Positions 5,752 through 51,658 of a stretch of DNA of 64,000 bases are shown one piece after another. The stretch comes from a virus (taxonomy: Duplodnaviria > Caudoviricetes). The number at the start of each line of letters is the position of its first letter. Position 1 is the stretch's first letter. The notes beneath the pieces were generated by a model. It saw nothing but the letters and a program-made list of their open reading frames with translations, did no database searches and had not been told where the DNA came from. The stretch lies in the IMG/VR virus record IMGVR_UViG_3300009183_000045, one strand, 5' to 3'. The translations under genes and the position numbers were made by a program.

Positions 5752-6183
5752 TTATTGGAAGGTTGCGGAGTTATCTGCATGCTCCCAAACCTCAACTTTG
5801 AACACTCTACATCGAGTTCCATACTTTTGTTTAATGATATTATCTGCTGCGTTAAAACACCATTCTGCTGTCTTTTCAATTCCTACTCCATCCATAATTC
5901 GAAGATCACATCCTTTTAAAATATGCAATTCTTCAAAATATCTTAACAACGGATCATCAGCTGCTACACAAAGAGTGTGGTCAAATTGATCCTGTAAAAC
6001 CTTTTTAAGATCTTTGAGATCTCCAAAATCTACACACCAATTTTTATCATCTAATTCTTTGCATTCAAACCAAAATTTGGCTTTAAGTTGGTAGCCGTGA
6101 ACGTATTGACAATGGGAGTGTTGTGCTCTCCATTGACGAAAAGCACAGCTACCCAATTCAATAATTTTTGTAGATTCAAACAT
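5752..6183 (-). CDS. queD: 6-carboxy-5,6,7,8-tetrahydropterin synthase
   Basis: HSHCQYVHGY, VDFG.LK, FDHTL, E..A, VWEHADNSATF. Confidence 0.92.
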   Translation of the reverse strand: MFESTKIIELGSCAFRQWRAQHSHCQYVHGYQLKAKFWFECKELDDKNWCVDFGDLKDLKKVLQDQFDHTLCVAADDPLLRYFEELHILKGCDLRIMDGVGIEKTAEWCFNAADNIIKQKYGTRCRVFKVEVWEHADNSATFQ

Positions 6184-7731: not shown

Positions 7732-8538
7732 TTATATTACTAATATTCCATTTTTCAATGCAAATTCTTCTCTTTTTGGTTCTGTTGTTTCTGGAGATAA
7801 TATATCTTCTAGAGATCCTTCTGGACTAGGATGGGATAGTAAGGTGTTTTTGCGTGGTGTTTCTTTATTTTCTTTTTTAGTGGTAACAACCTCTAGAGCT
7901 TCTGCAATGGCCGGAAATAATTGGTTAAAACTTTCCTTGATAGAATTAGCTATTGTCCTGTGTTCAAGTTGAGTATCTACTTTGCACCTCAAATCAAAAT
8001 AATGGATCCAGGAACGAATGTTTCCGGACATATAAAGAGTTGTTTGTGTGCAAAGAGGTAAAACTTTACGAGCACTTTCTCTTGCTCCTCCTTTGGATAT
8101 TATATATTCATACAGATCAATGCCATCTGTTACATGATCTATTACTCTTTTAATATCTTCCTTGCTTAGTGGTAAAATATCTGTACTAGATTGACGATTT
8201 TTTTCTGCCTGAGCTCTAATATCGAAGGATTCAATTCCGGTTACCATACTGTATCGCTGGCTAAATTCTTGAAAAGCAAAAGACTTGTGTCTAATAATTT
8301 GAGCTGATATGTCCCTGCTAGTTTGAATTTCAACCGTCATTGAAGCTTGCTCAAAGATGGACCAATGGCCGTGTTCTATACAATATTTAATTAATTTTGA
8401 AGCAGATTCTAAGTTTAATTGATTAGATGGATTTGAAACTCTGGCACAATATACAATAAATTCTTCTGCGGTTAAAAATCTTGTATTATCTTCAGATCTT
8501 ATAAAGGGTTGAGTAACTGCTACTACTTTGGTGTACAT
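7732..8538 (-). CDS. thyX: Flavin-dependent thymidylate synthase
   Basis: ARVSNP, HWSIFE, RHKSFAFQEFSQRY, ARE.AR.VLP, TQLEHR. Confidence 0.95.
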   Translation of the reverse strand: MYTKVVAVTQPFIRSEDNTRFLTAEEFIVYCARVSNPSNQLNLESASKLIKYCIEHGHWSIFEQASMTVEIQTSRDISAQIIRHKSFAFQEFSQRYSMVTGIESFDIRAQAEKNRQSSTDILPLSKEDIKRVIDHVTDGIDLYEYIISKGGARESARKVLPLCTQTTLYMSGNIRSWIHYFDLRCKVDTQLEHRTIANSIKESFNQLFPAIAEALEVVTTKKENKETPRKNTLLSHPSPEGSLEDILSPETTEPKREEFALKNGILVI

Positions 8539-9332
8539 ATACCTTTAAATTTTAAAATGTTATGCTTAATAAGTTCTAAATTTGAAGAAGAAATTTCTGT
8601 ATCAAATAACTCTACCATTTTTTGAGGAGATTTGTCTAAAAGAGTTTCAATGTCATCATATGATTTACCAGAAATACCTGCCATAACGGGGTGGGATGTA
8701 TCTATACTATCAATAAAATTATATCTCATTGCTACATAATGACTAAATTCTGTAGGGACACCACATCCTAATAAATGATGTGGTTTATTTTTATTAATAA
8801 TACCCATTCCCACTAAGTGATTTATTAATTTAATGCGACCTACATTAAATCTATAAGCATTTGAATTGACATAATGTTCTTGTGTAGATTCTAGAAAATA
8901 ATCATAACCAAAACTAATTGCTATCTTATCAGCCTTTTCATTCATGAACCGATAACACTTTACAAGTTCTTGTAAAGTTTTGCCTTGCAAGACACCAATC
9001 TTTTTACCTGATAATTGAGACAAATCAAAATTATTTGTAAAAGATTCAAATGAACTAATATTGTGATCACAATCTTGCCATACGTCAGGCACTATATATT
9101 CATCTGGTTGAATTTCTAAAAGCCATTTGTAATATTTTTTTGAATCAAATGCTACACCTAATTCAAAAAGACTGCAATCCATAATAATTTGACGACCACT
9201 AATTTTAGCTTTCTTAAAAAATTCTAAATATGCAGGGTATTGTTCCAGTAGATGAACTAAACAATAATCATAATCTGTCATTGTTTGTATCTCGTCCATA
9301 ATTGACATTGGAGCTTCGTGTGCTATTCTCAT
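8523..9332 (-). CDS. TGT/DpdA-like TIM-barrel base-exchange transglycosylase (candidate DNA 7-deazaguanine insertase)
   Basis: Motifs in TGT order: IIMDCS (DSGG-like), PDV, GVLQG, HLLGCG, SIDTS; co-occurs with folE2/queD/queE/queC. Confidence 0.68.
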   Translation of the reverse strand: MRIAHEAPMSIMDEIQTMTDYDYCLVHLLEQYPAYLEFFKKAKISGRQIIMDCSLFELGVAFDSKKYYKWLLEIQPDEYIVPDVWQDCDHNISSFESFTNNFDLSQLSGKKIGVLQGKTLQELVKCYRFMNEKADKIAISFGYDYFLESTQEHYVNSNAYRFNVGRIKLINHLVGMGIINKNKPHHLLGCGVPTEFSHYVAMRYNFIDSIDTSHPVMAGISGKSYDDIETLLDKSPQKMVELFDTEISSSNLELIKHNILKFKGICTPK

Positions 9333-12951: not shown

Positions 12952-13602
12952 CTATTTTACTTTCCATTTAACATCAAACTCGCTCCAATCTTCTGGAACA
13001 TCTTCAAATTTATTTTCTGTTAAAACTCCCCATCCAGATGAGCATTTTTTATAATTATCATCCAAGAAGACTTCAAAATTACTTAATTTGTTTTGAAATG
13101 TTTTAGATTTATTTGTGTAGATATTAGGTCTTCCGTCTTTTTCTACTTCACATTGTATTGTTTCTATAGATTTGTTATCTATTAGCAATTTTAAAGTGGT
13201 TAAAACTAAAAAATCACACCCCTGTAAATCACTTATATAAGTTTTAACACTTTTAATATCATTTTCTTCTAAAAAATTTATTAAATTTACAGTAGGCACC
13301 ACAATTTTTTCTTGGGTTTTAATTAAATGATATAAATTACTTTCTTTATTAGGTTCTAACAATGAACTAGAATCACCGTTGTTGCTTGATATGTAGAAAT
13401 ACATACTTTCATTATGTCTATCACACACAGCAGCATTAATTATTTTTACATGGGGGTGGGAGTTAAATCTTTGAAATAAAATTCTACAAAAATTTGGATT
13501 GGCTTCAAATATAAAAACTTTTTCATAATCATCAATCAAACCAGAAACACCATTTCCGTGATGGCCTCCTACATAAATTAAAACATTTTCGAATTTTTTC
13601 AT
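12952..13602 (-). CDS. FkbM-family SAM methyltransferase
   Basis: YVGGHHG, FEANP, NAAV, SSSL, SDLQGCD (D.EG.E-like). Confidence 0.8.
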   Translation of the reverse strand: MKKFENVLIYVGGHHGNGVSGLIDDYEKVFIFEANPNFCRILFQRFNSHPHVKIINAAVCDRHNESMYFYISSNNGDSSSLLEPNKESNLYHLIKTQEKIVVPTVNLINFLEENDIKSVKTYISDLQGCDFLVLTTLKLLIDNKSIETIQCEVEKDGRPNIYTNKSKTFQNKLSNFEVFLDDNYKKCSSGWGVLTENKFEDVPEDWSEFDVKWKVK

Positions 13603-13605
13603 TTT

Positions 13606-14925
13606 TTATTTGGATAACTGATCTTGATTTAGTTTAATTAAATTAGGACTTTTTAAATTTCGCTCTTTAGATCCCCAATTAGTAAAATACATTGCCTCAA
13701 ATTCATCCAAATGATCTTCTAACCACAATTTGTCCGTAAAATCGTGAATATTTTTAGAAAGTTTCATATATCTGTCATAATCTGATGTAATGTGTTCTAA
13801 TTGGCTTATCAGATCAACACCTTTATCAAATTTTAACTCTGCATCTTTATATGTACAGAGATTTTGAAAGGTTCCTGGCATGCCAAATGCACCGGATTCA
13901 ACAATTTTAATGTTACTTTTAGATTTATTGAAAATATTATCTTGCAAGGGTGCAAAACTTACGTTACATGCTGCATCGTGTATGGCTTTGGGTAAATCAA
14001 ACAAAGAAGACCACGGTAAAAATTCCATTTCACCATTATCAATAAAGGGTTTAACCGAAAGTGGAAATGTTCCTTTCCAAACAAATTTAAATTTCTTGCG
14101 AGCCTTAATAATTTCATCAACAACGTGAGCAAAATCATCCTTTAGTCCAGTTTTATTGGCAACATCTATATGAGTGCCGGAACCAGCATACAATACTCGT
14201 GGTCTCCTCTTATGTTGATCATAAAGTTTTGCTATTCTATCTGGATAATAGTAATGTCCCAACCATTGTTTTGGAGCATAATTAGGAATGACTGTTACTT
14301 TCTTCGAACCAGTTTTTTCAATATAATAATCTTTCATATATTGACAGGTGACTGTCATCTCGTCCATCAATTCCATAATTTCTAAAATAGTGTTTTCCAC
14401 TTCTGAGGATGCAAAAGCTTCCTTGCATCTATTATAATCTGGAATATCATTTCGGAAGACCACATCATCAATTTCATACACCAATTTATAACCAATTTGA
14501 TCTTTATGTTTGTGAAGTTCTTGTATAAAACTTTTTTGTACCGGAGTTGCCTGTCTTTGCATTCTTATAGTTTTAATGTTTTGATAAAAACGCAAATCTA
14601 AAACCATACTAGTTAATCCAGATACACAAGCCTTATGATAAGCATTGAGAGAAATTTCGGGCCATATCATACGCCAGAAACCACAACCACCGTAATCTGC
14701 ATAATAGTTTAATGCTCGTGGTAAGTTGGCTTCTTGCATTACTACAGGTGCCTGCACTGGAATCCGAATAGGAACAGATGAGATGTATCGGTTCTTGGGT
14801 AAAAAAGATTGATAATGTCCAGATGGTAAATTTGGAATACCATGTTCCACAGAAGAATATTCGTAAACTATTTTATCATCTAAATTATGAGATGAATTGT
14901 CTGAAGATTTTAATTTTAAGGCCAT
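13606..14925 (-). CDS. GT-B fold glycosyltransferase, 439 aa
   Basis: DYGGCGFWR, YEIDD, APL..N.FNKSKSNIK.VE (GT4-like nucleotide-sugar motif). Confidence 0.75.
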   Translation of the reverse strand: MALKLKSSDNSSHNLDDKIVYEYSSVEHGIPNLPSGHYQSFLPKNRYISSVPIRIPVQAPVVMQEANLPRALNYYADYGGCGFWRMIWPEISLNAYHKACVSGLTSMVLDLRFYQNIKTIRMQRQATPVQKSFIQELHKHKDQIGYKLVYEIDDVVFRNDIPDYNRCKEAFASSEVENTILEIMELMDEMTVTCQYMKDYYIEKTGSKKVTVIPNYAPKQWLGHYYYPDRIAKLYDQHKRRPRVLYAGSGTHIDVANKTGLKDDFAHVVDEIIKARKKFKFVWKGTFPLSVKPFIDNGEMEFLPWSSLFDLPKAIHDAACNVSFAPLQDNIFNKSKSNIKIVESGAFGMPGTFQNLCTYKDAELKFDKGVDLISQLEHITSDYDRYMKLSKNIHDFTDKLWLEDHLDEFEAMYFTNWGSKERNLKSPNLIKLNQDQLSK

Positions 14926-14956: not shown

Positions 14957-15709
14957 CTAGACTCTTAACGCTCTATCCCAAACCATTAAATGCAAACGAG
15001 GAGACATTTTAAATCCATACTGCTTACACAATTCTGCCACTGGTTCTGCATTATCTATATGTTCTGCTCTTGAACCGGCACATACCATAATCCATATAAG
15101 ATCCCGAGGAATCATAAGACCAGGGTGATTAATAAAATCTATAAACAACTCTTGCATATCAGTTTCATCCTTGATGACAAATTTAAAACAGGAATTGTGA
15201 TCTACATGAAATTTTAAAGCCTGTAAATTATAACGCTTTTGTTTAGAATCTCCGTTAGAGGATAATTTTGGAGACGTTGTAAAAGTTGCATTATATTCTT
15301 CTACCCATTTTGGATCCGGTAGAATGGTACCATTGGTCTCAAAATCTATACGAGGAAGAAATCCAAAGTGATTTTTAAAGGCTTCTACAAACTTTAATAG
15401 AGGTTCTTGCCGGAGCATGGGTTCTCCTCCAGTAATTTTCCATATATCACCTCGACGGAGGTTATCAGCTAATCCATTTTCTTTATAAAATTTGAACAAT
15501 TGTTCAAAACTATACTTATTTTTCTTAGACCAAGAGATATAAGAATCACAACCCCACGGAGAATCTGGTGATGCCCATCCGCGGCAGGTTAGGTTGCACC
15601 CAAACAGCCTCATGAATACACTCGGATAACCAATAAACTTTCCTTCACCTTCAATGGTATGAAAACCAGGTCCATCATCACTGATCAATAGATAATTTTC
15701 TTCAGACAT
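14957..15709 (-). CDS. queE: 7-carboxy-7-deazaguanine synthase (radical SAM)
   Basis: F.TIEGEG...G.PSVF.RL.GCNL.C...CDS, ITGGEP, ETNGT, SPKL, PRLH..W. Confidence 0.93.
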   Translation of the reverse strand: MSEENYLLISDDGPGFHTIEGEGKFIGYPSVFMRLFGCNLTCRGWASPDSPWGCDSYISWSKKNKYSFEQLFKFYKENGLADNLRRGDIWKITGGEPMLRQEPLLKFVEAFKNHFGFLPRIDFETNGTILPDPKWVEEYNATFTTSPKLSSNGDSKQKRYNLQALKFHVDHNSCFKFVIKDETDMQELFIDFINHPGLMIPRDLIWIMVCAGSRAEHIDNAEPVAELCKQYGFKMSPRLHLMVWDRALRV

Positions 15710-32762: not shown

Positions 32763-33236
32763 ATGAAGATTAAAGATTCTCTGGTGGTTTACCTCCCCCA
32801 GAGAATCATCATGTTTCCCCTACATCTATACATTAATTCACTAATAACAAGGGTGTTAAATAGATTGTATGAATGGGATATACACACTAGCAAAAAAATT
32901 TCTGGCAAAGAAAAATATTTTAATCATTTTTTAGAAAAAGAAATATTAGACATTCTTTCTGAAATTAAAATAGTTTACAAAGATTTAAACCTTAAAATAT
33001 TTACCTTTTATATTAAATGTAATATTTCTGAAACAAATCAAGAATTTTTATCTTTAGACAATTGTGTAATTAAAAAAGTTTTAAAAACCTTCAACAAAGT
33101 GTGTGGAAAATATTTTATTAAAAATATACCCAAAAATATTTATTTTAAACCATCTGAAAAAAGTTTTAAAAATATAAAATGCGGAGTTTTAACTGGTGAA
33201 GAGTTGGAATTCCTAGTTAAACTAACAAATGATTAA
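32763..33236 (+). CDS. Hypothetical protein, 157 aa
   Basis: Promoter upstream; overlaps the next gene. Confidence 0.6.
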   Translation: MKIKDSLVVYLPQRIIMFPLHLYINSLITRVLNRLYEWDIHTSKKISGKEKYFNHFLEKEILDILSEIKIVYKDLNLKIFTFYIKCNISETNQEFLSLDNCVIKKVLKTFNKVCGKYFIKNIPKNIYFKPSEKSFKNIKCGVLTGEELEFLVKLTND

Positions 33237-34125
33237 CATGTCTGAAAAATATATTATATTTCACATAGATGGTGGTGTAGGCAAAAGTGTGTTAGCCACC
33301 GCAGTTTGCACTTCTATAAAAGCAGCTCATCCAAACAGAAAATTAATTGTTATTTCTGCGTGGCCAGAAGTATTTTTACACAATCCCTTAATTTATAGAG
33401 TTTATAAAGCTGGTAATTTTGCATATTTTTATGAAGATTTTATTAAAAATAAAGACTCTTTAATTTTTCGACTAGAGCCCTATCATGCTCATGATTTTGT
33501 ACATCAATCTAAATCTTTAATTGAAATCTGGTGTGATTTACTGCACATTCCTTGCTCGACTCTACAACCCACTATAGTGTTGTCTCAAAGAGAAATTGTA
33601 AATGCTCAAAGTGTACTTGACAAAAAGAAATCTATATTAATGATTCATCCATTTGGTGGGGGAGATAATGAACCAAATTCCTATTCATGGGCCAGAGATC
33701 TACCACCAGCATTTGCTCAATCCCTGGTTAACAAGTTGTACAAACAATTCGATAAAGTTCTTCAAGTAAGGAGAGATAAGCAGATTTTATTAGAAAATAC
33801 TGTAAGTGTAACAGACAATTTGAGAAATTTATTTTGTTATGTTCATCTTTCAGATAAGATCATAGCCATGGACTCTATGATTCAGCATATAGCAGCAGCT
33901 TTAAACAAACCAGCGGTGGTTGGATGGATAGGCAATTCTCCAAATGTATTTGGGCATAAAATTCACACAAATGTACCACCACAACAAAGACCTGCCTTTA
34001 GACATTCCATTGATTCTTACATGGAAGAGTTGGATTGGACTGGAAAAAGATATCACGAATGTCCTTATGAAGACATTAATCACATTTTTGATGAAAAAGA
34101 ATTTTTAGAATATTGTAAATTATGA
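33229..34125 (+). CDS. GT9 (heptosyltransferase-like) GT-B glycosyltransferase
   Basis: DGGVGK.V..TAV, IHPFGG, IAMDSMIQH.AAALNKPAVV.W. Confidence 0.7.
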   Translation: MINMSEKYIIFHIDGGVGKSVLATAVCTSIKAAHPNRKLIVISAWPEVFLHNPLIYRVYKAGNFAYFYEDFIKNKDSLIFRLEPYHAHDFVHQSKSLIEIWCDLLHIPCSTLQPTIVLSQREIVNAQSVLDKKKSILMIHPFGGGDNEPNSYSWARDLPPAFAQSLVNKLYKQFDKVLQVRRDKQILLENTVSVTDNLRNLFCYVHLSDKIIAMDSMIQHIAAALNKPAVVGWIGNSPNVFGHKIHTNVPPQQRPAFRHSIDSYMEELDWTGKRYHECPYEDINHIFDEKEFLEYCKL

Positions 34126-34411: not shown

Positions 34412-35683
34412 ATGAACAGACGTGATTTTTTATACACTGGGTTGTTTGGGGGTTTGGGTTTAGCTACGGGTGACATGCTCAAACTGCAAGCGCAGTCTGG
34501 GTTGGTTCCGAAGGCACAGTCAGTAATACATATCTATTTGCCCGGCGGAGCTGCCGCTCAAGAAATGTGGGATCCAAAACCATTAGCACCTGCAGAGTAT
34601 AGAGGACCCTTAGGTTCCGTACAAACTGTAATTCCTGGTGTACATTTTTCTGAACACTTGGCCAAGACAGCAAAGATTGCAGATAAGATTACAGTAGTTC
34701 GATCTATGACCCATGGTGATGCCGCTCACGAGAGAGGAACCAGTACCATGTTTACCGGATATAGGCCTTCTCCAGCAGTTAACTACCCATCTTTTGGTGC
34801 AGTTACGTCTCATCAATTTGGTAGCAAAAATAATTTGCCAGCATACGTTTGTATTCCACAAAAATTAGACAACAATGGTAGCGATGTGGCAGGGACCGGA
34901 TATCTTTCTAATGCATTTGGTCCTTTTAGCTTAGGCAGTGACCCTGCAGCTCCTGGATTTAAAGTAAGAGATCTTCAAACCACAGTTAGTGATGAGCGCT
35001 TTAGCAAAAGACTAGGAATTCTTGACACAGTTGATAGTCACTTTAAATATCTAGAAAAGAGTGACAATCTTACTGCCATGGATACGTTCTACCAACAGGC
35101 GTATGATCTTATTGCTTCGCCGAAAGCAAGAGGAGCTTTTGATCTGACCCAGGAAAAAGATATGCTCCGAGACGCTTACGGCCGCAATCAAGCCGGCCAG
35201 CGTTTGTTAATGGCTCGCCGCCTAGTTGAATCAGGAGTTCGATTTGTATCTGTAACATATGGAGGATGGGATATGCATACTGGTATTGGTTCAGGGATCA
35301 GCAAGACATTGCCTCCCTTTGATCAGGCTTATTCTACTTTAATTAACGACTTAGATCAAAGAGGAATGCTTAATGACACCATTGTAATGGTATCTTCTGA
35401 GTTTGGTCGTACTCCAAAAATTAATAAAGACGGCGGAAGAGATCATTGGCCTCGAGTATTTTCAGTAGTATTTGCGGGTGGAGGCTTTAAACGTGGATAT
35501 ATTCACGGTGCTTCTGATGCAACTGGAGGAGATGTGGATAATTCACCTCTAACTATTGAAAACCTAGCGGCAACTCTGTATACTCAGCTTGGAATTGATC
35601 CAGATTCTAAGCTTATGACACAAGATGGCCGGCCCGTTGCGGTTGTTTATAACGGAACAGCAGTAAAAGAACTTATAGCATAA
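34412..35683 (+). CDS. DUF1501 family protein with Tat signal (copy 1)
   Basis: MNRRDFL, KAQSVIHIYLPGG, WDPKP, ARRLVESGVRFV, WDMH, SEFGRTP, RDHW, GGGFKRG. Confidence 0.93.
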   Translation: MNRRDFLYTGLFGGLGLATGDMLKLQAQSGLVPKAQSVIHIYLPGGAAAQEMWDPKPLAPAEYRGPLGSVQTVIPGVHFSEHLAKTAKIADKITVVRSMTHGDAAHERGTSTMFTGYRPSPAVNYPSFGAVTSHQFGSKNNLPAYVCIPQKLDNNGSDVAGTGYLSNAFGPFSLGSDPAAPGFKVRDLQTTVSDERFSKRLGILDTVDSHFKYLEKSDNLTAMDTFYQQAYDLIASPKARGAFDLTQEKDMLRDAYGRNQAGQRLLMARRLVESGVRFVSVTYGGWDMHTGIGSGISKTLPPFDQAYSTLINDLDQRGMLNDTIVMVSSEFGRTPKINKDGGRDHWPRVFSVVFAGGGFKRGYIHGASDATGGDVDNSPLTIENLAATLYTQLGIDPDSKLMTQDGRPVAVVYNGTAVKELIA

Positions 35684-35684
35684 T

Positions 35685-37052
35685 ATGAAAGACTGTGGTA
35701 ATCATATCGAGTCCGTTCCTACTACTAGGAGAGAATTATTAACTAATTTTGGGTGGGGTATGGGAGGATTGTCTTTAGCTTCTTTGTTGGGAGTATGTCC
35801 TAATACAGCCGAAGCCGTATCTCCTCTTGCAGCAAAAAATCCACACTTTCCTGTAAAGGCAAGAGCAGTCATTCAACTAGTAGCAAGTGGTGCTCCAAGC
35901 CATGTTGATACGTTTGATTACAAACCCGAACTGCAAAAAAGAGATGGCCAAAAAGGAGACAATGGCAATCTTCTTGCTTCACCTTTCGAGTTTCCTCGAT
36001 TTGGTAAATCTGGATTGCACATTTCTGAAGTATGGTCCAAGTTAGGAGCTCATGCTGATGATATGGCGATCATCAATTCCATGTTTACCGAAATTCCTGA
36101 TCACAACATTGCCCAAAAAATGTTTAATACCGGATCAGCACAATTGCCCAAGCCTAGTTTAGGAAGTTGGTTGGCATATGGACTAGGAACCACTAATCAA
36201 AATATGCCGGCATTCATTTCTTTAAATGGGAGTCCAGAATGGAGACAGTGTGCTTTTTTACCCGGAATGTTTCAGGGTTGCAATGTTCAATATAAAAATA
36301 ACATGAAGTCAGATCAGATCCTTTCTAATCTAACCAGTCAGTTTTCTACATTAGACCGCCAGCGCCGGCAGTTAGATTTAGCCAAGATGATGAATTATGA
36401 TCACATGAGTCGCCTACAGAAGGACATTCAGCTGGAATCTAGAATCGAAACATTTGAAACTGCATTTAAGATGCAAACAGAAGCAACAGACGCTTTTGAT
36501 ATATCTAAAGAATCAGAAGCTACCCATGAGTTATATGGCAAAAACGAAGAAGGAAATAAAATGATGGTTGCTCGGCGCCTGGTAGAGAGAGGAGTTCGGT
36601 ATGTTCAAGTCCAAGTTGGTGGTTATGATCATCATATGGATATAAAAACAGCTATGACCCGGACCGCTGGTAGATATGACCAAGCCTTCTCTGCTCTTCT
36701 TACTGACCTTAAACAGCGAGGACAGCTAGATTCCACTCTTGTAATCTGGGGTGGAGAGTTTGGTCGTACTGTCACGGCAGGCGGCGGCGCGGGTGCCCCT
36801 GGAAGAGATCATAATGGTAAGGCATTTTCTGTGTGGATGGCTGGTGGAGGTGTTAAAGGCGGCCAGCGATATGGCGAAACAGATGAAACCGGCTCCAAAT
36901 CAATTAAAGATGTAGTACATATTCATGATTTACATGCTACAATTTTAGCCCTTATGGGATTTGATCATAAAAAATTGACTTACAATTATAACGGAAGAGA
37001 GTTTCGATTAACTGATAACTTTGGAAACGTGGTTAAAGAAATTATTTCTTAA
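35685..37052 (+). CDS. DUF1501 family protein with Tat-like signal (copy 2)
   Basis: TRRELL..G.G.G.LSLA.LL, KARAVIQL...GAPSHVDTFDYKP, ARRLVERGVR, YDHH, WGGEFGRT, GRDHN. Confidence 0.93.
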   Translation: MKDCGNHIESVPTTRRELLTNFGWGMGGLSLASLLGVCPNTAEAVSPLAAKNPHFPVKARAVIQLVASGAPSHVDTFDYKPELQKRDGQKGDNGNLLASPFEFPRFGKSGLHISEVWSKLGAHADDMAIINSMFTEIPDHNIAQKMFNTGSAQLPKPSLGSWLAYGLGTTNQNMPAFISLNGSPEWRQCAFLPGMFQGCNVQYKNNMKSDQILSNLTSQFSTLDRQRRQLDLAKMMNYDHMSRLQKDIQLESRIETFETAFKMQTEATDAFDISKESEATHELYGKNEEGNKMMVARRLVERGVRYVQVQVGGYDHHMDIKTAMTRTAGRYDQAFSALLTDLKQRGQLDSTLVIWGGEFGRTVTAGGGAGAPGRDHNGKAFSVWMAGGGVKGGQRYGETDETGSKSIKDVVHIHDLHATILALMGFDHKKLTYNYNGREFRLTDNFGNVVKEIIS

Positions 37053-38953: not shown

Positions 38954-39931
38954 TCATATTAATTCAAAATAATTAGGTTTTATGTTAAAACTCAGTCCCT
39001 CATTATAACTAGTTATGTTAATGTTGTTAATCATGAGCTTGGTTCTGCCTATTAAGTGCAAATACAGATGTTCGGTTTTAATGCCCCGCTCGTCCTGAAT
39101 TCTAAATAATTTTCCTTTTTGATAAGAAAAATACTGGTTGGTGTAATTTTTAATATTATTTTCTTCAAAATGTCTTGGTATGAAAACATCTTTATAAGAA
39201 GCATTTTCTGCGGGGTTAAACAAATCACACATTTCACCGTTTTCCGTCAACTTATAAAATTTATAAGTTGGAATCAACGTAGAATACACCTTTACAGTGC
39301 CCTGTGACCACCCTTCACAAGTTAAAAGATGTTTATGATTTTTGTTAATAAGTTCATCTTTATGTTTATTTAAACTAAGGTTTAAATAATTTTTATGCCC
39401 ATTTTCAGGCCAAACACCAATATTTGTGAGAATTTGTTTAATAAACCCATCATTTTTATATAGACAAAAATGCCCTCTAGAACCTATAAAATTATAGTTT
39501 TTATCCATTAAAGGTTGTATTATATTTTCAATATCACCCATTATGGTATCATTATCAAAATAACCACAATATTCATACCCCTCTAAGTCTTTTTTAAAAA
39601 TGTCATCAAAATAACACCTATAATCGGCAAATTTATACATTGGAGTTTTTGCTTTAAATACAGTTTCTTTTTCTCTAACGTTTAAAAGCAAAGGATCCGG
39701 GATATCTAAATCAAACCAATCTTTTAAAGTAGCAGTTAACATGGGATTTAAATCTTCAGCAGTTAAAAATTTATCTATTACATTAGAAGGTAGTTCCGGT
39801 TTATTTTTTATGTCATTGATAAACAAAAAGTCTATATTCTTATTTTGTGCCAAGCTGTACAAAAATAAATTAAAAAACGGATGCAGTTGTCCGTGCATGT
39901 GAAATATTAGACATATTTTATTTTTTTTCAT
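38954..39931 (-). CDS. DUF6625-like putative glycosyltransferase
   Basis: G.L..FFNLFL.S...N..IDFL, YKFADYR, GY..CGYFDND..MGDI; start moved to MKKNK (ATG 39931) to remove the overlap. Confidence 0.65.
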   Translation of the reverse strand: MKKNKICLIFHMHGQLHPFFNLFLYSLAQNKNIDFLFINDIKNKPELPSNVIDKFLTAEDLNPMLTATLKDWFDLDIPDPLLLNVREKETVFKAKTPMYKFADYRCYFDDIFKKDLEGYEYCGYFDNDTIMGDIENIIQPLMDKNYNFIGSRGHFCLYKNDGFIKQILTNIGVWPENGHKNYLNLSLNKHKDELINKNHKHLLTCEGWSQGTVKVYSTLIPTYKFYKLTENGEMCDLFNPAENASYKDVFIPRHFEENNIKNYTNQYFSYQKGKLFRIQDERGIKTEHLYLHLIGRTKLMINNINITSYNEGLSFNIKPNYFELI

Positions 39932-39938
39932 ATTGGAT

Positions 39939-40940
39939 TTATAACAAACTTTGTATTTTTTTGAGTACATCCTCTTTTCTGAGTTTAAAATTTGCACAAG
40001 TAGGATCCGAGGCTCTGGCTTTATTAGTGGGAGTAAAATTTTCATAACCTTCAAGGCCACTATAGGCCATATTCATCCCCTTTGCTGTGCGTTGACTGCA
40101 CTGTAAAGCTCCGTTCTTAGGAGATACAAATAGTATTTTAGCTTTGTTTGGGTTGCAGTATATTTGGTTTGTACTTCCTGTACCGCCGATAACCATTACA
40201 AATTTTGCGTTTCTGAATAGTTGTACTTGTTCTATATAAGGCATTCCGGTTAATGTAATTTTTCTAATTGGTATATCGTTTTCATTTAAAAACTGTAGTA
40301 TTTCTTCTTGATTTAGCAAAAGCCTGCAATCGGAGTCATCCCTGCCTACATATATAAAATCTGTTGGGTTCTCTTCAGGAATTAAGTATTTTTCTAATTT
40401 TTCTGAAAAATAGGATAAAGGTAGGCACCCAGCCGTGGATGTTTTGGTTGAAATTACAAGATTTTCTTTTGTAGTATATAGAACATCACGTTCCGCAAAA
40501 ATTAGCTCATAACTATCTATATTAAAATTAAAAATGTGTCGCAGGACTTCTTTTAAAACGTTACCTGCTCTGCACCACGTCATAAGTATGGCAGTGTTCT
40601 CTGGTGTATATTTTTCAAGAACACCCAAATCTTTATAAAGCAAAAATTGCCCGATAGTCTCATGATGAAGATGCCAGTAATGGCTACCAGTATTTAACTG
40701 AAGCAAATTTTTATCACTCTTTATAGTATGTTTTGGAATTTTTTCCGGTATAGCTTCTTTTTTACTATCTTTAATCCTATTACCAGAACACGAACGTATT
40801 ATTTCTCCAAAAGAGTCTTTAGCTACATCTATATCCCCATCCATGGACATAAAAGATCCTTTAGGAAGCTCATATAAAAAATATGGATCTGGTTGAAAGT
40901 GCAAACTAGAGGATTTATCAAAGTATTTTGTTTTTTTCAT
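39939..40940 (-). CDS. GT61 (DUF563) glycosyltransferase
   Basis: YWHLHHE, IYVGR....RLLLNQ.E, EQVQLF.NAK.V...G. Confidence 0.8.
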   Translation of the reverse strand: MKKTKYFDKSSSLHFQPDPYFLYELPKGSFMSMDGDIDVAKDSFGEIIRSCSGNRIKDSKKEAIPEKIPKHTIKSDKNLLQLNTGSHYWHLHHETIGQFLLYKDLGVLEKYTPENTAILMTWCRAGNVLKEVLRHIFNFNIDSYELIFAERDVLYTTKENLVISTKTSTAGCLPLSYFSEKLEKYLIPEENPTDFIYVGRDDSDCRLLLNQEEILQFLNENDIPIRKITLTGMPYIEQVQLFRNAKFVMVIGGTGSTNQIYCNPNKAKILFVSPKNGALQCSQRTAKGMNMAYSGLEGYENFTPTNKARASDPTCANFKLRKEDVLKKIQSLL

Positions 40941-40945
40941 AATGT

Positions 40946-41740
40946 TTAATAGGTCTGTCTTAAAAAGCCGTTGTATAGATTAACGCAGTATTTGTATTCT
41001 AGCTCATGCTTTTCATTAAGAAAACTACCGTAGTTTTTAATGTGAGGGTTTGTTAATTTTCTACTTTCATTAAGGTATATTTTAAAATGATAGGGTTTAG
41101 GTCCGTGGAAATGAATTAAATAGGCACTTTCATTTATGCCCCAATAAGGTTTCCAATTTATTTCATCTGATATTTTTTGATGTTTATAAAATTCATTTAA
41201 TGCTCCTTGATCTGTCGCTACAAATTTAAATTGTTTGGAAATTACAAAATCATAAAATTCCTGATATGTATCAAGCATATTTTTGGTATTACACCACATT
41301 ACACCGGAGTTGAACATCTTTACATCATTTTGATTAAATTCTCCAGTGGCTGCTATGGTTTCTGGAGTAAGTTTCAATAAAAAATCTGTAGGATCTCTGG
41401 TAAAAATAACGTCACAGTCTGTATACAAATAATACTCTATATCCAAGTTTAGCTGTTTAATTATTAAAGGTATATCTATGCGCAAAAAGGCCCCATAAAA
41501 AGTTTTGTGAGCAACCTCTTCAACCATTTCTGTTATTTTATTTTTAAAAGAAGATTCGTGTAATATTACAGTCACTCCATTTTCTTTTAGAAAATTAATG
41601 AATTCTTTATTATCACCATCATATAAGCAGTAAGCATTAAAATTGTAACTCAATGAACTTAGAACTGCAACTTTAGCCATGTCCATAAAGGCCCCGGACC
41701 TATTTTCATTCAAACAAAAAAACCAATTTATTTTTTTCAT
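40946..41740 (-). CDS. GT8 glycosyltransferase
   Basis: FLRIDIP, LYTDCDV, FNSGVM, DQGALN, NWKPYWG, IHFHGPKP. Confidence 0.88.
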   Translation of the reverse strand: MKKINWFFCLNENRSGAFMDMAKVAVLSSLSYNFNAYCLYDGDNKEFINFLKENGVTVILHESSFKNKITEMVEEVAHKTFYGAFLRIDIPLIIKQLNLDIEYYLYTDCDVIFTRDPTDFLLKLTPETIAATGEFNQNDVKMFNSGVMWCNTKNMLDTYQEFYDFVISKQFKFVATDQGALNEFYKHQKISDEINWKPYWGINESAYLIHFHGPKPYHFKIYLNESRKLTNPHIKNYGSFLNEKHELEYKYCVNLYNGFLRQTY

Positions 41741-42522
41741 AACAATTTTTTAACTTTTTCTACATATTTAAGAGCTAGGTCATCATAGACATCATTTTTA
41801 TCATATGTATCAAACATTTCTATAGGCCTTTTTTCATTAACAGTGGCTCTTCCTCTTCGTCTTTTTTCTATCCAGTCTTCATAAGATCTGTTAAAATAAT
41901 GATTAACTCTTATTTTATTTGCTATTGATTTTTCTATTCTACCTTCTTGAGTTTCATCTATTAAATCGCCGTTTTCATTTACTATTCCTTTGGTGGTAGA
42001 AAACATATGAGGTGTCATATAACCTTTTATTTCATTGGGTTTAACTATTACTTTTACATGAGTATTAGGATGCCAGTCATCACGAGCTCTGTATAAAAAA
42101 TTTTCTAAACAAGTACCAGGTTTTCTTAATATATTTCCGGAAGAACCGTATATACGCCAGCTGACACCCAGCCCGGAATAATTTTTATAATCTTCTAGAA
42201 AAGTCCTTAAATCTGTTGGTTCTTCTGGCATGAAATATTCATCTGCATCACAATATATCATCCATTCAGTGTTGTTTCTTCCGTAATTTTTATAAGAAAC
42301 TTGATAAGCATAACCCTGTCTATCTGGGCTTGGTGAATCAAAATCTATTAAAAGTATATCATCTCGGAAAGATAGATCATTTATTTTATCTTCTGTGTCA
42401 TCAGTACTCTTATCATTAAAAACATAAAATTTTTCAACGCCAAGGGTCTTGTAATAGGTCAACCATTCCTGGATGTAATGAGATTCGTTTTTAACACAGG
42501 TTGTAAGAGAAAGATATTCCAT
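41737..42522 (-). CDS. GT92/GT2-like glycosyltransferase
   Basis: KNE..YIQEWL.YY..LGVEKFYVF.D, WMIYCDADEY, HVKVIV, INHY-like VNHYFNRS. Confidence 0.85.
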   Translation of the reverse strand: MEYLSLTTCVKNESHYIQEWLTYYKTLGVEKFYVFNDKSTDDTEDKINDLSFRDDILLIDFDSPSPDRQGYAYQVSYKNYGRNNTEWMIYCDADEYFMPEEPTDLRTFLEDYKNYSGLGVSWRIYGSSGNILRKPGTCLENFLYRARDDWHPNTHVKVIVKPNEIKGYMTPHMFSTTKGIVNENGDLIDETQEGRIEKSIANKIRVNHYFNRSYEDWIEKRRRGRATVNEKRPIEMFDTYDKNDVYDDLALKYVEKVKKLL

Positions 42523-47404: not shown

Positions 47405-48364
47405 ATGAGGGCTCTACCGGGAACTTATGTTTTAAGCAAATTCTATACCTTAGCAGGAGAACCTTCTTTTCGTAAATTTGACGGCAATTATAATGCCTCT
47501 TGTCCAATATGTCGTGAAGGTAAGAGCTGGTTGAAAAAGAAAAGACTTTTCTTCTATCCTTCAACCAGCTCTTTTTATTGCTTCAATTGCAATAAATCAT
47601 GGAATGCCTGGAGATGGATCACTGAATCCTCTGGTCTTACTAGAGAAGAGATTGAAATAGAAGCATTCAATGGCAACACCTCAACAGATGTCACTGATCA
47701 TATAGGATTAGTTAAACAAATTCGCAAAGAAAAACCAAATCTTCCTCATGATTCAGTTAATTTGAGTGATTTACAACAACAAAAATTTTATAGATCTTCT
47801 AATCACTTTAATAATGCTCTTGAATACTTAAAAAGTAGAAAATTAGATGTAGCAATCAACCGAAGTGTTAATTTTTATATAAGTTTAACAGACCACTTTC
47901 ATAAAAATAGGTTATGTATTCCCTATTTTGATCGCAATCGTAAAATAGTATTCTATCAAACAAGATCTTTAGACGGTTCAGAACCTCGTTATTTAAATAA
48001 AATAGGATATGACAAAACTGTTTTTGGTATAGACAGAGTTGATAGTGAGTTGGATAAAATTTTTCTATTTGAAGGACCTATTGATGCCATGTTTGTAAAG
48101 AATGGAGTATCTTTAGCCGGCCTTTCCCTCACCAATACCCAAGAGAAACAATTATCAGAATTTCCTTTTCATGACAAAATATGGGTATTAGACAATCCAA
48201 GAATAGACAAGGCCTCCAAAGAGAAGCTTTTTAGCTTGTTAAGCACAAAACAAAAGGTATTCCGGTGGCCTCTCGACAAGCCCTATAAAGATTTCAATGA
48301 ATGGGCGGTTAAAGAAGGAATCAACGAAATACCTATTGATTTTATTTTAAATTCTTTATACTAA
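47405..48364 (+). CDS. gp61 DNA primase
   Basis: CPIC zinc finger, YCFNC, IPY, YQTR, RYLN, TOPRIM FEGPIDAMF, LDN, YKDFNE. Confidence 0.95.
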   Translation: MRALPGTYVLSKFYTLAGEPSFRKFDGNYNASCPICREGKSWLKKKRLFFYPSTSSFYCFNCNKSWNAWRWITESSGLTREEIEIEAFNGNTSTDVTDHIGLVKQIRKEKPNLPHDSVNLSDLQQQKFYRSSNHFNNALEYLKSRKLDVAINRSVNFYISLTDHFHKNRLCIPYFDRNRKIVFYQTRSLDGSEPRYLNKIGYDKTVFGIDRVDSELDKIFLFEGPIDAMFVKNGVSLAGLSLTNTQEKQLSEFPFHDKIWVLDNPRIDKASKEKLFSLLSTKQKVFRWPLDKPYKDFNEWAVKEGINEIPIDFILNSLY

Positions 48365-48936
48365 CCACCAACCTGAGTTTGTTCAAAATCTCTTTGTTTT
48401 TTGGGTGCCATAATAATGAAAGAGTTAAGAACTTCTTTCAACTTTTCAATTTCACCAGCAATGCGAGTAATACTGTCGGAGGCCTTACGAGTGACTCCGC
48501 GTAATAAAGAACCCGGCCGGTCTTCTGCTGCAAGTATTTTGTGCAAGGACTGGCTGTCAGGGTTGTTCATGAAGTCTGCAAAATCATCTAATTTCTTGGA
48601 CCATTCTCTTATTGCCGTGATAGCATTGGCGGTTACATTAGGATCAGTGCCTTCTGTGTCAAAATTATCCCCTGGAGTTTCTTTTTCTAAAGAATCACCA
48701 AAATCTTTTTGATTTTGGTCTGGTGTAAAATCTTCTGGAGTCTTTGGATCCACCGCTTGGGCGGCGGCGGCCACATCCCCTTCGGCTTCTCTTACTAAGT
48801 GAGATATAAAACTTTTCAAAAACGGAACATATGATTCATCATACTCGCAGCTTGCCTGATTAGCTTTTAGAATTCTTGCAACCTCTTTGGCATGCACATT
48901 TGAATTATTTTTCGTGTTTTTGATTGAATTCTTCAT
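48361..48936 (-). CDS. Hypothetical protein, 191 aa, candidate late/internal protein
   Basis: Opposite strand; TAAATA upstream (48949-48954); F..HLVRE motif. Confidence 0.65.
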   Translation of the reverse strand: MKNSIKNTKNNSNVHAKEVARILKANQASCEYDESYVPFLKSFISHLVREAEGDVAAAAQAVDPKTPEDFTPDQNQKDFGDSLEKETPGDNFDTEGTDPNVTANAITAIREWSKKLDDFADFMNNPDSQSLHKILAAEDRPGSLLRGVTRKASDSITRIAGEIEKLKEVLNSFIIMAPKKQRDFEQTQVGG

Positions 48937-48952
48937 TGATTTATAGTATATT
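48924..48952 (+). promoter_or_regulatory. Sigma70-type promoter TTGAAT-N17-TATATT, 6 nt before the queC ATG
   Basis: Read directly. Confidence 0.55.
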
Positions 48953-48958
48953 TACCTC

Positions 48959-49702
48959 ATGGACAGTACAAATACATTGAAGTCTTGTGTAGTTTTATTT
49001 AGCGGAGGCATGGACAGTACCGTTGTACTGCATCATGCATTAGCCAATTATGATAAAGTGTATGCTTTAGCTATTGATTATGGGCAACGTAATATTAGAG
49101 AATTAACAAATGCAGAAGATTATCTTACCAGTTACATTTTAAAATCTTCATATGCAGAAAAAATCAAATATTCACGCTTGCCCCTTCCAGTTAAGCTATT
49201 GAATTTTAATTCAGCATTAACAAATGATGAGATAGAGGTGCCTAAAATGAAAGAGGTTATTGGAGATCCTCAAAATAATGCTTATGTACCCAATCGAAAT
49301 ATGATATTTTTATCATTGGCCGTTGGAATGGCAGAGAGTGTGGGTGCAACTCACGTACTATACGGAGCAGCAAAAGCAGATGATACATCAGGGTTCTGGG
49401 ATTGTACAGCTGACTTTAGAAATTATCTAAATACCATTTTATCCTTAAATCGTAGGAATTTAATAGAGATTAAAACACCTCTAATAGATAAAACAAAAAA
49501 AGAAATTATAGAATACGGTATTGAATTAGGAGTTGAGTTTGCACTGACGAGGACATGTTACACAGAACACGAAAAATCCTGTGGAGAGTGTCCTAGTTGT
49601 TCAGCAAGAATTGCAGGGTTTATTCACTCCAAAAAAATTGATCCTCTAAAATATTCTAGAGATATACCGTGGCAAAATTGGAATTGTGAACCATTATATT
49701 AA
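48959..49702 (+). CDS. queC: 7-cyano-7-deazaguanine (preQ0) synthase
   Basis: FSGGMDST, DYGQR, YVPNRNMIFLS, DC, TPL, T.TCY, CGECPSC..R. Confidence 0.95.
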   Translation: MDSTNTLKSCVVLFSGGMDSTVVLHHALANYDKVYALAIDYGQRNIRELTNAEDYLTSYILKSSYAEKIKYSRLPLPVKLLNFNSALTNDEIEVPKMKEVIGDPQNNAYVPNRNMIFLSLAVGMAESVGATHVLYGAAKADDTSGFWDCTADFRNYLNTILSLNRRNLIEIKTPLIDKTKKEIIEYGIELGVEFALTRTCYTEHEKSCGECPSCSARIAGFIHSKKIDPLKYSRDIPWQNWNCEPLY

Positions 49703-49705
49703 GAT

Positions 49706-50347
49706 ATGTGTGCAATTAGTGGATCTAACAATTTAGAAAAGGCGTTTGCTCTTTATAAACTTAATTTACAAAGAGGTGCCCAGTCCTCGGGTATGCTAGC
49801 AGTTGGCTCCAGAGGATCCAATGTAAGCAGAATAGCAAATACATATGATGAGGATTATATATCTCATTTTAAAAAACAATTTGCTCAAAGCCCTTTCAAC
49901 TATCATTATTTTTTATTCCATTCCAGGGCTCCTACAAATAGTACAGTAACAACCTGGAGCCAAGAAACTACACACCCGTTTGCGTCTTCCAGTGGCCCAG
50001 ATTATCTCGTAGCACATAATGGAATTATAACAAATTTTTCTTCTTTTGAAGAAAGTAAACATCTAACAATAGATTCTCAAATAATTCCAGAACATCTATC
50101 GAAAACTCAAAACATTGTTGAAACATTTTCAAAATACGAAGGATTGTTTACCTGTTGGATAGTAAACAGGGATAGAATACAATTAGTTAAAGCGGGCAGT
50201 TCTCTATGGATGGATGAAAATTCCTTTTCTTCTTCCAAGTTTGAAGGTGCAGAATGTGTGGAAGATGATGGTGTTATATTTGATTATAAAGACGGAAAAT
50301 TTGAAAAGAGTGGAACCTTTCCGTACACCAACACTTATTTTATATGA
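49706..50347 (+). CDS. Class II (Ntn) glutamine amidotransferase
   Basis: N-terminal Cys (MCAISG), RG..SSG, HSRAPT, HPF, AHNGII. Confidence 0.88.
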   Translation: MCAISGSNNLEKAFALYKLNLQRGAQSSGMLAVGSRGSNVSRIANTYDEDYISHFKKQFAQSPFNYHYFLFHSRAPTNSTVTTWSQETTHPFASSSGPDYLVAHNGIITNFSSFEESKHLTIDSQIIPEHLSKTQNIVETFSKYEGLFTCWIVNRDRIQLVKAGSSLWMDENSFSSSKFEGAECVEDDGVIFDYKDGKFEKSGTFPYTNTYFI

Positions 50348-51042
50348 AAAAAGTAACTGCAATTATTGCAACAGAAGCCAAGTCAATGCAAGAATTTGAA
50401 AAACGTCCAATTTTTAAATCTCTACAGAGACATTATGACTCTAAAGATCTTTTTACTTTGAATAAATTTGATTTTGTTGTCGTAAAAAACAACAAAGAAG
50501 GTTTGTCTAAGGTTTATAACAAATTTTTAGAAGACCCAAAGTATTCAAAGGATATACTTTTGTTTGTACATGATGATGTTGAACTAGAAGATGTGTTTTT
50601 AATTGAAAAATTGAGAGAATCTCCTTATGAGGTAACTGGTCTGGCAGGAACAAAAAAGGCAGACTTGAGTAAACCTTCTGGTTGGCATTTAATGAGTGGC
50701 AAAGAAGATTGGGTTGGGGAAGTGGCTCATGCAGAAATTAAAGAGGGCAAAAAAAATGTTTGGACAACTAGTTTTGGATCCACAGATTCCAGAGCCCTTT
50801 TGATAGACGGACTTTTTATTGCAGTAGACGTCAAAGCTTTAAGGGATAAATCTGTTAAATTTAATGAAAAGTTTGAATTTCATCATTATGATTTAGCCTT
50901 CTGTCTTGAGTGTAATAAAGCAAAAGTAAAAATTGGTGTGTTGCCTATAAGAGCAATCCACCACGGTCTAGGTGATAGTATGCTTTCTGAAGATTGGAAG
51001 ATCAGTGCTGAAATATTCAAGCAAACCTACGGTACAAATTAA
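50344..51042 (+). CDS. GT-A glycosyltransferase (Glyco_tranf_2_5-like)
   Basis: LSKVYN, FVHDDV, GLAG, IDGLFIAV, FHHYDL..C; ATGA overlap with the GAT gene. Confidence 0.82.
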   Translation: MKKVTAIIATEAKSMQEFEKRPIFKSLQRHYDSKDLFTLNKFDFVVVKNNKEGLSKVYNKFLEDPKYSKDILLFVHDDVELEDVFLIEKLRESPYEVTGLAGTKKADLSKPSGWHLMSGKEDWVGEVAHAEIKEGKKNVWTTSFGSTDSRALLIDGLFIAVDVKALRDKSVKFNEKFEFHHYDLAFCLECNKAKVKIGVLPIRAIHHGLGDSMLSEDWKISAEIFKQTYGTN

Positions 51043-51064
51043 AAACAAACTATATAATAAAAAT

Positions 51065-51658
51065 ATGAGCAGATCTAGAATTTATAATGATGAAGACTAT
51101 GACGGATCTTTGATCCACGAACGATTTGGTTACAGAATCTTTCGTAAAGAATACAATCCACTTGGTGTCCTTTATATTACCAGAGGCAATATGGACGTTA
51201 AAGATAATCTGATTGATTTAGAGGATAAACTATCTGATGATTTTATTTATTCTGATGATGCATTGAGCATTTGCTGGGAGATTCCTAACATGAATGCTAT
51301 CGGAGCTGTATTCTTTCAGCGTCTATTTGTGCAAGAAATTGCTAACCTTTTCAGAACAGACAAGTTTGGTCTTTATGATGTTGAAGTAAATGGAGATGAT
51401 TTAATGCTTCGCAAAAAGGGCATGGGGGAGAATAATAGAGAAGAATGGGGCAAAGCTAGTGTAAGCATTACCAAAGTAACAGACACAGTTGCCTTGGGTC
51501 ATTTTGGAATCAATATTAGTGCGGGTGAAAGAGCACCTAGTTTTGCATTTTCTCTTTTCTTAACAGATGAGTTGGTTGAAAAGTTGGCTAGCAAAATTGA
51601 TGACATTTTTTATGAAATTGTTCGGGATTGTTTTACAGCAACCACCAAAGTAATTTAA
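51065..51658 (+). CDS. DUF366-like protein (BPL/LplA-like fold)
   Basis: YDGS.IH..F.YR, RG.MDV...LIDLED, FI.SDD, GDDL, K.SVSI, HFGINI; start taken at MSRSR (ATG 51065), preceded by TATAAT-N6. Confidence 0.75.
   Translation: MSRSRIYNDEDYDGSLIHERFGYRIFRKEYNPLGVLYITRGNMDVKDNLIDLEDKLSDDFIYSDDALSICWEIPNMNAIGAVFFQRLFVQEIANLFRTDKFGLYDVEVNGDDLMLRKKGMGENNREEWGKASVSITKVTDTVALGHFGINISAGERAPSFAFSLFLTDELVEKLASKIDDIFYEIVRDCFTATTKVI

Follow-up and report, generated by a model that had tools for sequence, protein, structure and literature searches.

What do four closely packed genes of an uncultured phage, namely queC, a gene for a stand-alone glutamine amidotransferase (GAT), a glycosyltransferase (GT) gene and a gene of the DUF366 family, make together, and do all of them belong to one pathway? 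The question was raised by positions 48,959 to 51,658 of a 64,000-nucleotide stretch of viral DNA, here called the window, taken from the IMG/VR record IMGVR_UViG_3300009183_000045. The initial annotation had proposed that the row makes an undescribed, further decorated 7-deazaguanine for phage DNA. The reading favored here, with a probability of roughly 0.6, is that the window holds a dispersed DpdA3-type 7-deazaguanine system with QueC plus GAT and a DUF366 accessory, and that the GT would be an unrelated resident beside it. The DpdA3-type system itself is of a known kind, and the occurrence of QueC and GAT as a separate two-gene form is new.

The full gene set for DpdA3-type deazaguanine DNA modification, i.e., FolE2, QueD, QueE, QueC and DpdA3, was found within the one window. 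The genes on the minus strand were folE2 for GTP cyclohydrolase IB (588-1661; PF02649, 1.6e-63), queD for 6-carboxytetrahydropterin synthase (5752-6183; PF01242, 4.1e-18) and queE for the radical SAM enzyme 7-carboxy-7-deazaguanine synthase (14957-15709; phrog_2076 'QueE-like radical SAM', 4.7e-46, with a weak match to Fer4_12). The queC gene on the plus strand (48959-49702; PF06508, 6.6e-55; phrog_1550, 6e-61) encodes the synthase of 7-cyano-7-deazaguanine (preQ0), a PP-loop ATPase with a C-terminal Cys cluster, which passed the TIGR00364 equivalog with 166.9 bits against a cut-off of 150.3. A DpdA3-type DNA guanine transglycosylase of 269 aa was encoded at 8523-9332 on the minus strand, overlapping thyX (phrog_19058, 1e-49). 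This protein had no match in Pfam, including the TGT family, and no sequence match in the PDB; it was 44.5% identical over its full length to the DpdA of Flavobacterium phage immuto_2-6A and 39% identical to the CP220 homologue, and its neighbors in the Atlas carry the names TGT/DpdA. The DpdA3 subfamily was defined in PMC10516641, and all G is replaced in its phages.

The window resembles these DpdA3 phage systems (immuto_2-6A and CP220 homologues) in combining DpdA3 with FolE, QueD, QueE and QueC functions in a large myovirus, and in that G would be expected to be replaced in the DNA of the phage itself. In contrast to them, its genes do not form a cluster but are dispersed among replication genes, FolE2 stands in place of FolE, QueC is accompanied by the stand-alone class II GAT and DUF366, and no QueF, DpdL, DpdM or DpdN was found near the genes. 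For questions that concern the whole genome, the closest complete relative, G016 (227 kb), was used as a proxy for the phage of the window. As QueF was not found in G016, the base in this lineage should be derived from preQ0, and we infer from the gene content that it is dPreQ0, dG+ or dADG. Relatives in a distant clade carry a bimodular QueF gene beside DpdA3 (G001:159800-162008; G002:10441-11100), and these phages probably carry a preQ1-type base, unlike the QueF-less lineage of the window.

In the favored scheme, FolE2, QueD and QueE would make 7-carboxy-7-deazaguanine, which QueC would turn into preQ0 using ammonia that the separate GAT releases from glutamine. QueC and GAT would form a two-gene version of the AsnB-like or Gat-QueC architecture, and in this QueF-less lineage they may also take preQ0 further, to the amidine archaeosine (G+). 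DpdA3 would then swap guanine in the phage DNA for the deazaguanine base, by which the DNA would be protected from restriction. DUF366 would act as a conserved accessory of 7-deazaguanine metabolism, and the GT would use an acceptor of its own that does not depend on the deazaguanine.

The four genes were all located on the plus strand and tightly packed, downstream of a divergent gene for a 191-aa protein (48361-48936, minus strand) that is separated from queC by 22 nt. The row described by the initial annotation was borne out in this respect, as family matches were found for each gene and both the 3-nt gap between QueC and GAT and the 4-nt ATGA overlap between GAT and GT were as claimed. Because each protein has hundreds of homologues, the row is no chance pattern of open reading frames (ORFs). 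The DUF366-like gene was also present as annotated (PF04017), but its start had to be moved: the ORF had been listed from GTG 50972, and ATG 51065, 22 nt past the GT stop codon, is the likelier start since all homologues and the database gene call give about 197 aa.

The GAT gene (49706-50347, plus strand) encodes a stand-alone class II (Ntn) amidotransferase of 213 aa, which starts with MCAISG (Cys2) and showed weak matches to Pfam GATase_6/7 and to the GlmS N-terminus (9e-6). The residues C2, R23-G24, H104-N105-G106, N110 and D123 were invariant across its homologues and the Gat domain of JenK1, and all catalytic residues of class II glutaminases were kept in the protein of the window. QueC and GAT were adjacent in the clade of the window, and in a distant clade (five genomes) the two had moved jointly to a slot between uvsX and gp41, with the GT beside them there too. 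Two gene orders, QueC-GAT-GT and QueC-GT-GAT, were seen among the relatives. QueC and GAT were either jointly present or jointly absent in the examined loci, with one exception (L120) that was apparently frameshifted. Such joint gain and loss suggests the behavior of two subunits of one function. The same GAT occurred in relatives with QueF (G001 and G002) and without it (G016), so its conserved job is more likely to be the supply of ammonia to QueC than the amidine formation of G+. We propose that the GAT is the glutaminase subunit of QueC, and the pair may additionally form G+ in the QueF-less lineage. A complex prediction for QueC and GAT gave a score of 0.02, obtained without control runs, and was counted neither way.

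The closest known arrangement to be compared is the Gat-QueC of Enterobacteria phage 9g, Nonagvirus and Crenarchaeota, which is linked to dG+ or G+; in phage 9g, Gat-QueC together with DpdA leads to dG+ (PMC6884629). The two arrangements share a class II GAT combined with QueC chemistry, and the catalytic residues Cys1, R-G, HNG, N and D. Gat-QueC is, however, a fusion with the GAT at its N-terminus, whereas the window has two ORFs, QueC first, divided by a stop codon and the 3-nt gap, and this split was common to all relatives. The window QueC was only 25.7% identical to the QueC part of the JenK1/JenP2 fusions, compared with 36-38% for the plain QueC of T4-like vibriophages, its nearest cultured relatives, and the window sequences did not group with the Gat-QueC family. 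The transglycosylase partner also differs, being DpdA3 in the window and DpdA1 with Gat-QueC, and a GAT of the window type occurs in QueF-encoding relatives as well, unlike the setting of Gat-QueC. The idea that the GAT is a split Gat domain of the 9g type was ruled out on sequence (E=0.048), and the 'aminotransferase' of the PA11 type was ruled out as a Gat-QueC by its location in an amidoligase cluster.

Further observations were made on QueC and GAT among the relatives and in cellular records. A contig of an Acidimicrobiaceae metagenome-assembled genome (L214:2900-4986) carried a QueC followed, about 0.7 kb on, by a phage-type GAT (hidden Markov model E=1e-23), and may be of phage origin despite its bacterial bin. 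A short gene of the IMPDH/GMP-reductase family (PF00478, 4.6e-60) stood between QueC and GAT in the distant clade (L100:7132-8088), and the same gene was present, unlinked, in the QueC-less genome G006 (191003-191926). In toyocamycin-type pathways, homologues of GMP reductase take deazapurine nucleotides as substrates; by analogy, this protein may carry out a step at the nucleotide level.

Is the GT a member of the pathway? Its gene (50344-51042, plus strand) encodes a majastridin/StrF-like GT-A glycosyltransferase of the family Glyco_tranf_2_5 (PF13712, 7.4e-9; 36.1 bits against a cut-off of 27), in which the motifs HDD (H76-D77-D78, DxD-type), DG[LV]F and H.YD were invariant. The structural model (pLDDT 92.5) adopted the GT-A fold and matched majastridin best in the PDB (2nxv/2qgi, TM 0.68), followed by StrF among the Swiss-Prot models and then by polypeptide GalNAc-transferases. 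Majastridin, a UDP-binding protein, and StrF, both of PF13712, resemble the phage GT as its best structural matches (TM 0.67-0.69), with a UDP-binding GT-A core and a DxD-type motif; they differ from it in that identity reaches only 16-19%, and in that the phage GT lies in a block of replication genes. The alpha- and beta-glucosyltransferases of T4 are GT-B enzymes that act on hydroxymethylcytosine. Like the GT of the window, they are phage glycosyltransferases found among replication genes, but the model of the window GT is GT-A and not GT-B. A hydroxymethylase of the thymidylate-synthase family (PF00303) was found in none of five related genomes, four of which were at least 99% complete, which makes a T4-style hydroxymethyl-pyrimidine target for the GT unlikely. 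No cultured phage gave a tblastn match to the GT.

Relatives of the GT were present on at least 544 IMG/VR contigs, and the best 80 loci were analyzed. QueC and/or GAT adjoined the GT in 25 of these loci and neither did so in the other 55, among which 40 read primase, 191-aa gene and GT without a detected DUF366, and 15 had a divergent DUF366. The unlinked orthologues, which include at least three lineages without QueC/GAT, were 44-57% identical with HDD, DG[LV]F and H.YD intact, and their identity to the window GT was normal for their lineages. The genome G006 (210,586 bp, 99% complete), which is fully syntenic with the window at 45-65% identity, kept the GT (57%), FolE2 and a 26%-identical DUF366-like gene; QueC, GAT, QueD, QueE and DpdA3 were all missing from it, and QueC was likewise missing from four more partial records of the unlinked clades. 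In a maximum-likelihood tree of 76 GTs, those linked to QueC/GAT occupied all deep branches and three unlinked clades were nested among them. The simplest history is thus an old neighborhood from which QueC and GAT were repeatedly lost together while the GT was retained. Since the GT stayed intact after the whole deazaguanine pathway had gone, its acceptor need not be a deazaguanine, and the GT would be a resident neighbor with its own acceptor, independent of the deazaguanine. The initial annotation had suggested that the GT could act on the base, and had itself named GT homologues unlinked from que genes in related phages as evidence that would speak against this view; such homologues were looked for and found, and in view of the 55 unlinked loci and G006 an action of the GT on the base is not supported. 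Translational coupling was dropped as evidence of function, as 4-nt overlaps are typical of all genes in this block.

One clade among the relatives (L123:6089-9199; also L125, L133, L137, L140 and L143) had a row of thyX, a small P-loop kinase gene, a DpdA3-like paralogue, the GT and a degenerate DUF366. The paralogue (phrog_20335) in this type of row was 24-29% identical to the DpdA3 of the window, and QueC was not present on the 46-61 kb fragments of this clade. Further sugar genes were located in the window at 38954-42522 (minus), 33229-34125 (plus) and 12952-14925 (minus), comprising DUF6625, GT61, a nucleotide-diphospho-sugar transferase, GT2_4, a weak GT9-like gene, the phrog_7162 glycosyltransferase and an FkbM methyltransferase next to queE.

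The fourth gene (51065-51658, plus strand) encodes a DUF366/COG2029 protein of 197 aa with a BPL/LplA-like ligase fold (PF04017, 2.6e-17; 63.3 bits against a cut-off of 29.9). The profile matched PDB entry 2ddz (PH0223) at 1.7e-24, the model (pLDDT 92.7) gave TM scores of 0.74-0.77 to 2ddz and of about 0.55 to biotin/lipoate protein ligases, and the Atlas cluster is named COG2029; the fold that had been suggested from the sequence was therefore confirmed by profile and model. PH0223 of Pyrococcus horikoshii, the one DUF366 protein of solved structure that these searches brought up, is of the same family and fold; the phage protein differs in being the product of a core gene of a T4-like clade. 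A literature search on DUF366, COG2029 and PF04017 gave no relevant paper. In a tblastn search, DUF366 hit only a bacterial-looking region of one GenBank phage record, MW495066.1 'Microcystis phage MaAM05', where 108-125 kb (L014) carries secF, glyS, mtgA, fabI, engB and fliM around DUF366 and looks like bacterial, not phage, DNA.

By synteny, DUF366 belongs to the core genes of the phage clade. Relatives were found on at least 567 IMG/VR contigs, and in 80 of the 80 loci analyzed DUF366 preceded one and the same block, made up of small ORFs (orf128 and orf144), a DinG-like helicase gene and gp15. Even homologues of 23-25% identity occupied this position in T4-like contigs, in some cases behind a dCMP deaminase gene. 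About 55 of the 80 loci had no QueC, GAT or GT within 10 kb, and each of the five genomes tested among those with an unlinked DUF366 encoded a QueC elsewhere, between uvsX and gp41. The conservation of DUF366 was then related to that of the helicase. The ratio of DUF366 to helicase identity was 0.97-1.35 where QueC is adjacent and about 1.1-1.7 in the clade with QueC elsewhere (confirmed in the five genomes tested), and 0.52-0.67 in the clade of G006/G007, which has no QueC and is more closely related to the window. DUF366 copies of QueC-less phages showed 26-32% identity; those of G006 and L123 kept 15 and 18 of 37 invariant residues, and the positions lost were E53-D54, R86, GDD110-112, K130, S132/S134, H146 and N150. 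In three other QueC-less records DUF366 was not present. The link of DUF366 to que genes given in the initial annotation thus received support, as the gene is conserved with QueC and decayed or gone without it. Across phages, QueC, GAT and GT remain adjacent in some clades, DUF366 is often distant from QueC, and the GT is often unlinked.

Among cellular genomes, DUF366 was found in 4 of 301 Chloroflexota genomes, and in none of 201 Thermoplasmatota genomes or 124 genomes of a second phylum. In three of the four Chloroflexota genomes a PF02592 gene lay directly upstream of DUF366, with a 4-nt overlap in L274. PF02592 is the YhhQ/QPTR family of transporters for preQ0 and queuosine precursors (PMC5372724, PMC11130926). 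The Chloroflexota row (L274:8260-13069; L276; L277), in which the PF02592 gene overlaps the DUF366 start and a DUF6884 gene lies downstream, may be an undescribed operon for the salvage of queuosine precursors. These lines on DUF366 (conservation ratio, invariant residues and Chloroflexota) are few and not fully independent of one another. Judged from these lines, DUF366 probably acts on, or together with, a 7-deazaguanine intermediate shared by every branch of the pathway. A protein kept in phages with and without QueF, and coupled to a gene for a preQ0-precursor transporter, fits poorly to a finishing enzyme that decorates G+, the role suggested for it earlier.

Several observations weigh against the dispersed DpdA3-type system with a QueC-GAT pair, a DUF366 accessory and an unrelated GT. 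The GAT was barely alignable with JenK1 Gat-QueC, whose Gat domain is of the 9g type (BLASTP E=0.048), and the phage proteins nearest to it are encoded in amidoligase rather than que clusters, in Pseudomonas phages. In many phages 30-50 kb separate DUF366 from QueC, about three evolutionary events underlie the co-variation of the two, and DUF366 was present in 0 of 73 sampled cellular QueC loci. The linkage of the GT to QueC/GAT is apparently ancestral and survived one relocation and at least one change of order. An NAD-dependent sugar epimerase/dehydratase gene (PF01370, 4.9e-41) lies between GAT and GT in one subclade (L023:8290-9303) and a GNAT acetyltransferase gene in another (L098:3503-3976), both with 4-nt overlaps on either side, and in 11 of the 55 unlinked GT loci the gene for the DpdA3-like paralogue phrog_20335 overlaps the GT start. 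The points on the GT are those on which its decoration of the base, with or without the help of DUF366, would be built: a sugar or acyl group on G+ or a preQ intermediate would give an undescribed glycosylated or acylated 7-deazaguanine in the phage DNA. The ATGA overlap of GAT and GT recurs in distant relatives, the linked GTs stand on deep branches, the structural neighbors of the GT include the small-molecule enzyme StrF, and the eight deazaguanine derivatives that PMC10516641 lists for phage DNA include no glycosylated one. Under this account the GT-A enzyme would add the sugar to the 7-substituent of the deazaguanine (G+ amidine, ADG amide or preQ1 amine), in the free base or in DNA; the inserted epimerase/dehydratase would make the sugar donor in some lineages, and the QueC-less relatives would have re-aimed their GT. 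Both the decorated base and the sugar transfer as such are nevertheless improbable, given the motif-intact GTs that persist without QueC and GAT, in G006 even without QueD, QueE and DpdA3, the unspecific nature of 4-nt overlaps in this block, the equal presence of the GT in QueF-plus and QueF-minus genomes, which should differ in their base, the several other glycosyltransferases of the phage, and the conservation of DUF366 whatever the predicted end product. That some small chance is left to a link between the GT and the pathway is because the trio survived relocation and reordering, because of the epimerase and GNAT insertions, and because the DpdA3-like paralogue abuts the GT.

The strongest competitor concerns DUF366, which might be merely a positional core gene of T4-like phages, adjacent to que genes by accident of the QueC-GAT landing site. 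Its constant place ahead of orf128, orf144, the helicase and gp15, the many loci without a nearby QueC, the dCMP deaminase that fills the upstream slot in distant T4-like contigs, the failure to find it in cellular QueC loci and, at tblastn sensitivity, in cultured deazaguanine phages all agree with such a view. We consider it somewhat unlikely, since every tested genome with an unlinked DUF366 encodes QueC, about half of the invariant residues or the entire gene have been lost in QueC-less phages that are closer relatives, and the gene is translationally coupled to that of a YhhQ-family preQ0-precursor transporter in Chloroflexota. A partnership of the GAT with the GT in amino-sugar synthesis, instead of with QueC, would explain why the two adjoin or have only the sugar epimerase/dehydratase or GNAT gene between them, and why the best family matches of the GAT are to the GlmS N-terminus; it is very improbable, however, as the GAT disappears along with QueC from loci that retain the GT, lacks a sugar-isomerase (SIS) domain, and in many loci stands in the order QueC-GT-GAT. 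We give equally little credence to que genes that raise queuosine in host tRNA and leave the phage DNA unmodified. While preQ0 is a precursor for tRNA too, the transglycosylase is a DpdA3 member 44.5% identical to one from a phage with all G replaced and has no Pfam TGT match, and G016 lacks the QueF that bacterial queuosine synthesis needs.

The surroundings of the row agree with the phage origin given by the initial annotation. The contig belongs to a large, AT-rich, uncultured T4-like myophage with about 33% G+C and densely packed genes, and the window encodes gp20 portal, gp15, prohead protease, gp32, a family B polymerase, a Rad50-like gp46 and primase. A blastn search of the 2.7-kb stretch against GenBank phages gave no match. 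Two overlapping sigma-70-like promoter matches (48920-48952, plus strand; TTGATT-16-TATAGT and TTGAAT-17-TATATT), which are consensus matches only, fall in the 22-nt gap between the divergent gene and queC. The T4 late motif TATAAATA was not found ahead of any of the four genes; it occurred four times in the window, and three of the copies were immediately upstream of queE (15718, minus), a gene at 44764 (44751, plus) and the prohead protease gene (62830, plus). A tandem pair of DUF1501 genes was located at 34412-37052 (plus), and the cellular QueCs nearest to that of the phage were from Verrucomicrobiota, Lentisphaerota, Hydrogenedentota and Anaerolineae; together, these two observations hint at a host of the Planctomycetes-Verrucomicrobia-Chlamydiae (PVC) group.

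A sugar-bearing deazaguanine was the most attractive claim for this locus and would be striking if true, being the first glycosylated 7-deazapurine in DNA, but it is weak and is countered by the persistence of the GT without the pathway. The analysis places a full DpdA3-type deazaguanine DNA-modification pathway in a very large clade of uncultured aquatic T4-like phages, in which the GT or DUF366 gene was found on hundreds of IMG/VR contigs. It also raises the idea that QueC with a separate glutaminase subunit may constitute a glutamine-dependent preQ0 synthase. Finally, because DUF366 decays after loss of the pathway, is missing from QueC-less records and is coupled to a YhhQ-family gene in Chloroflexota, the DUF366/COG2029 family with its ligase fold may be an unrecognized player in 7-deazaguanine metabolism.

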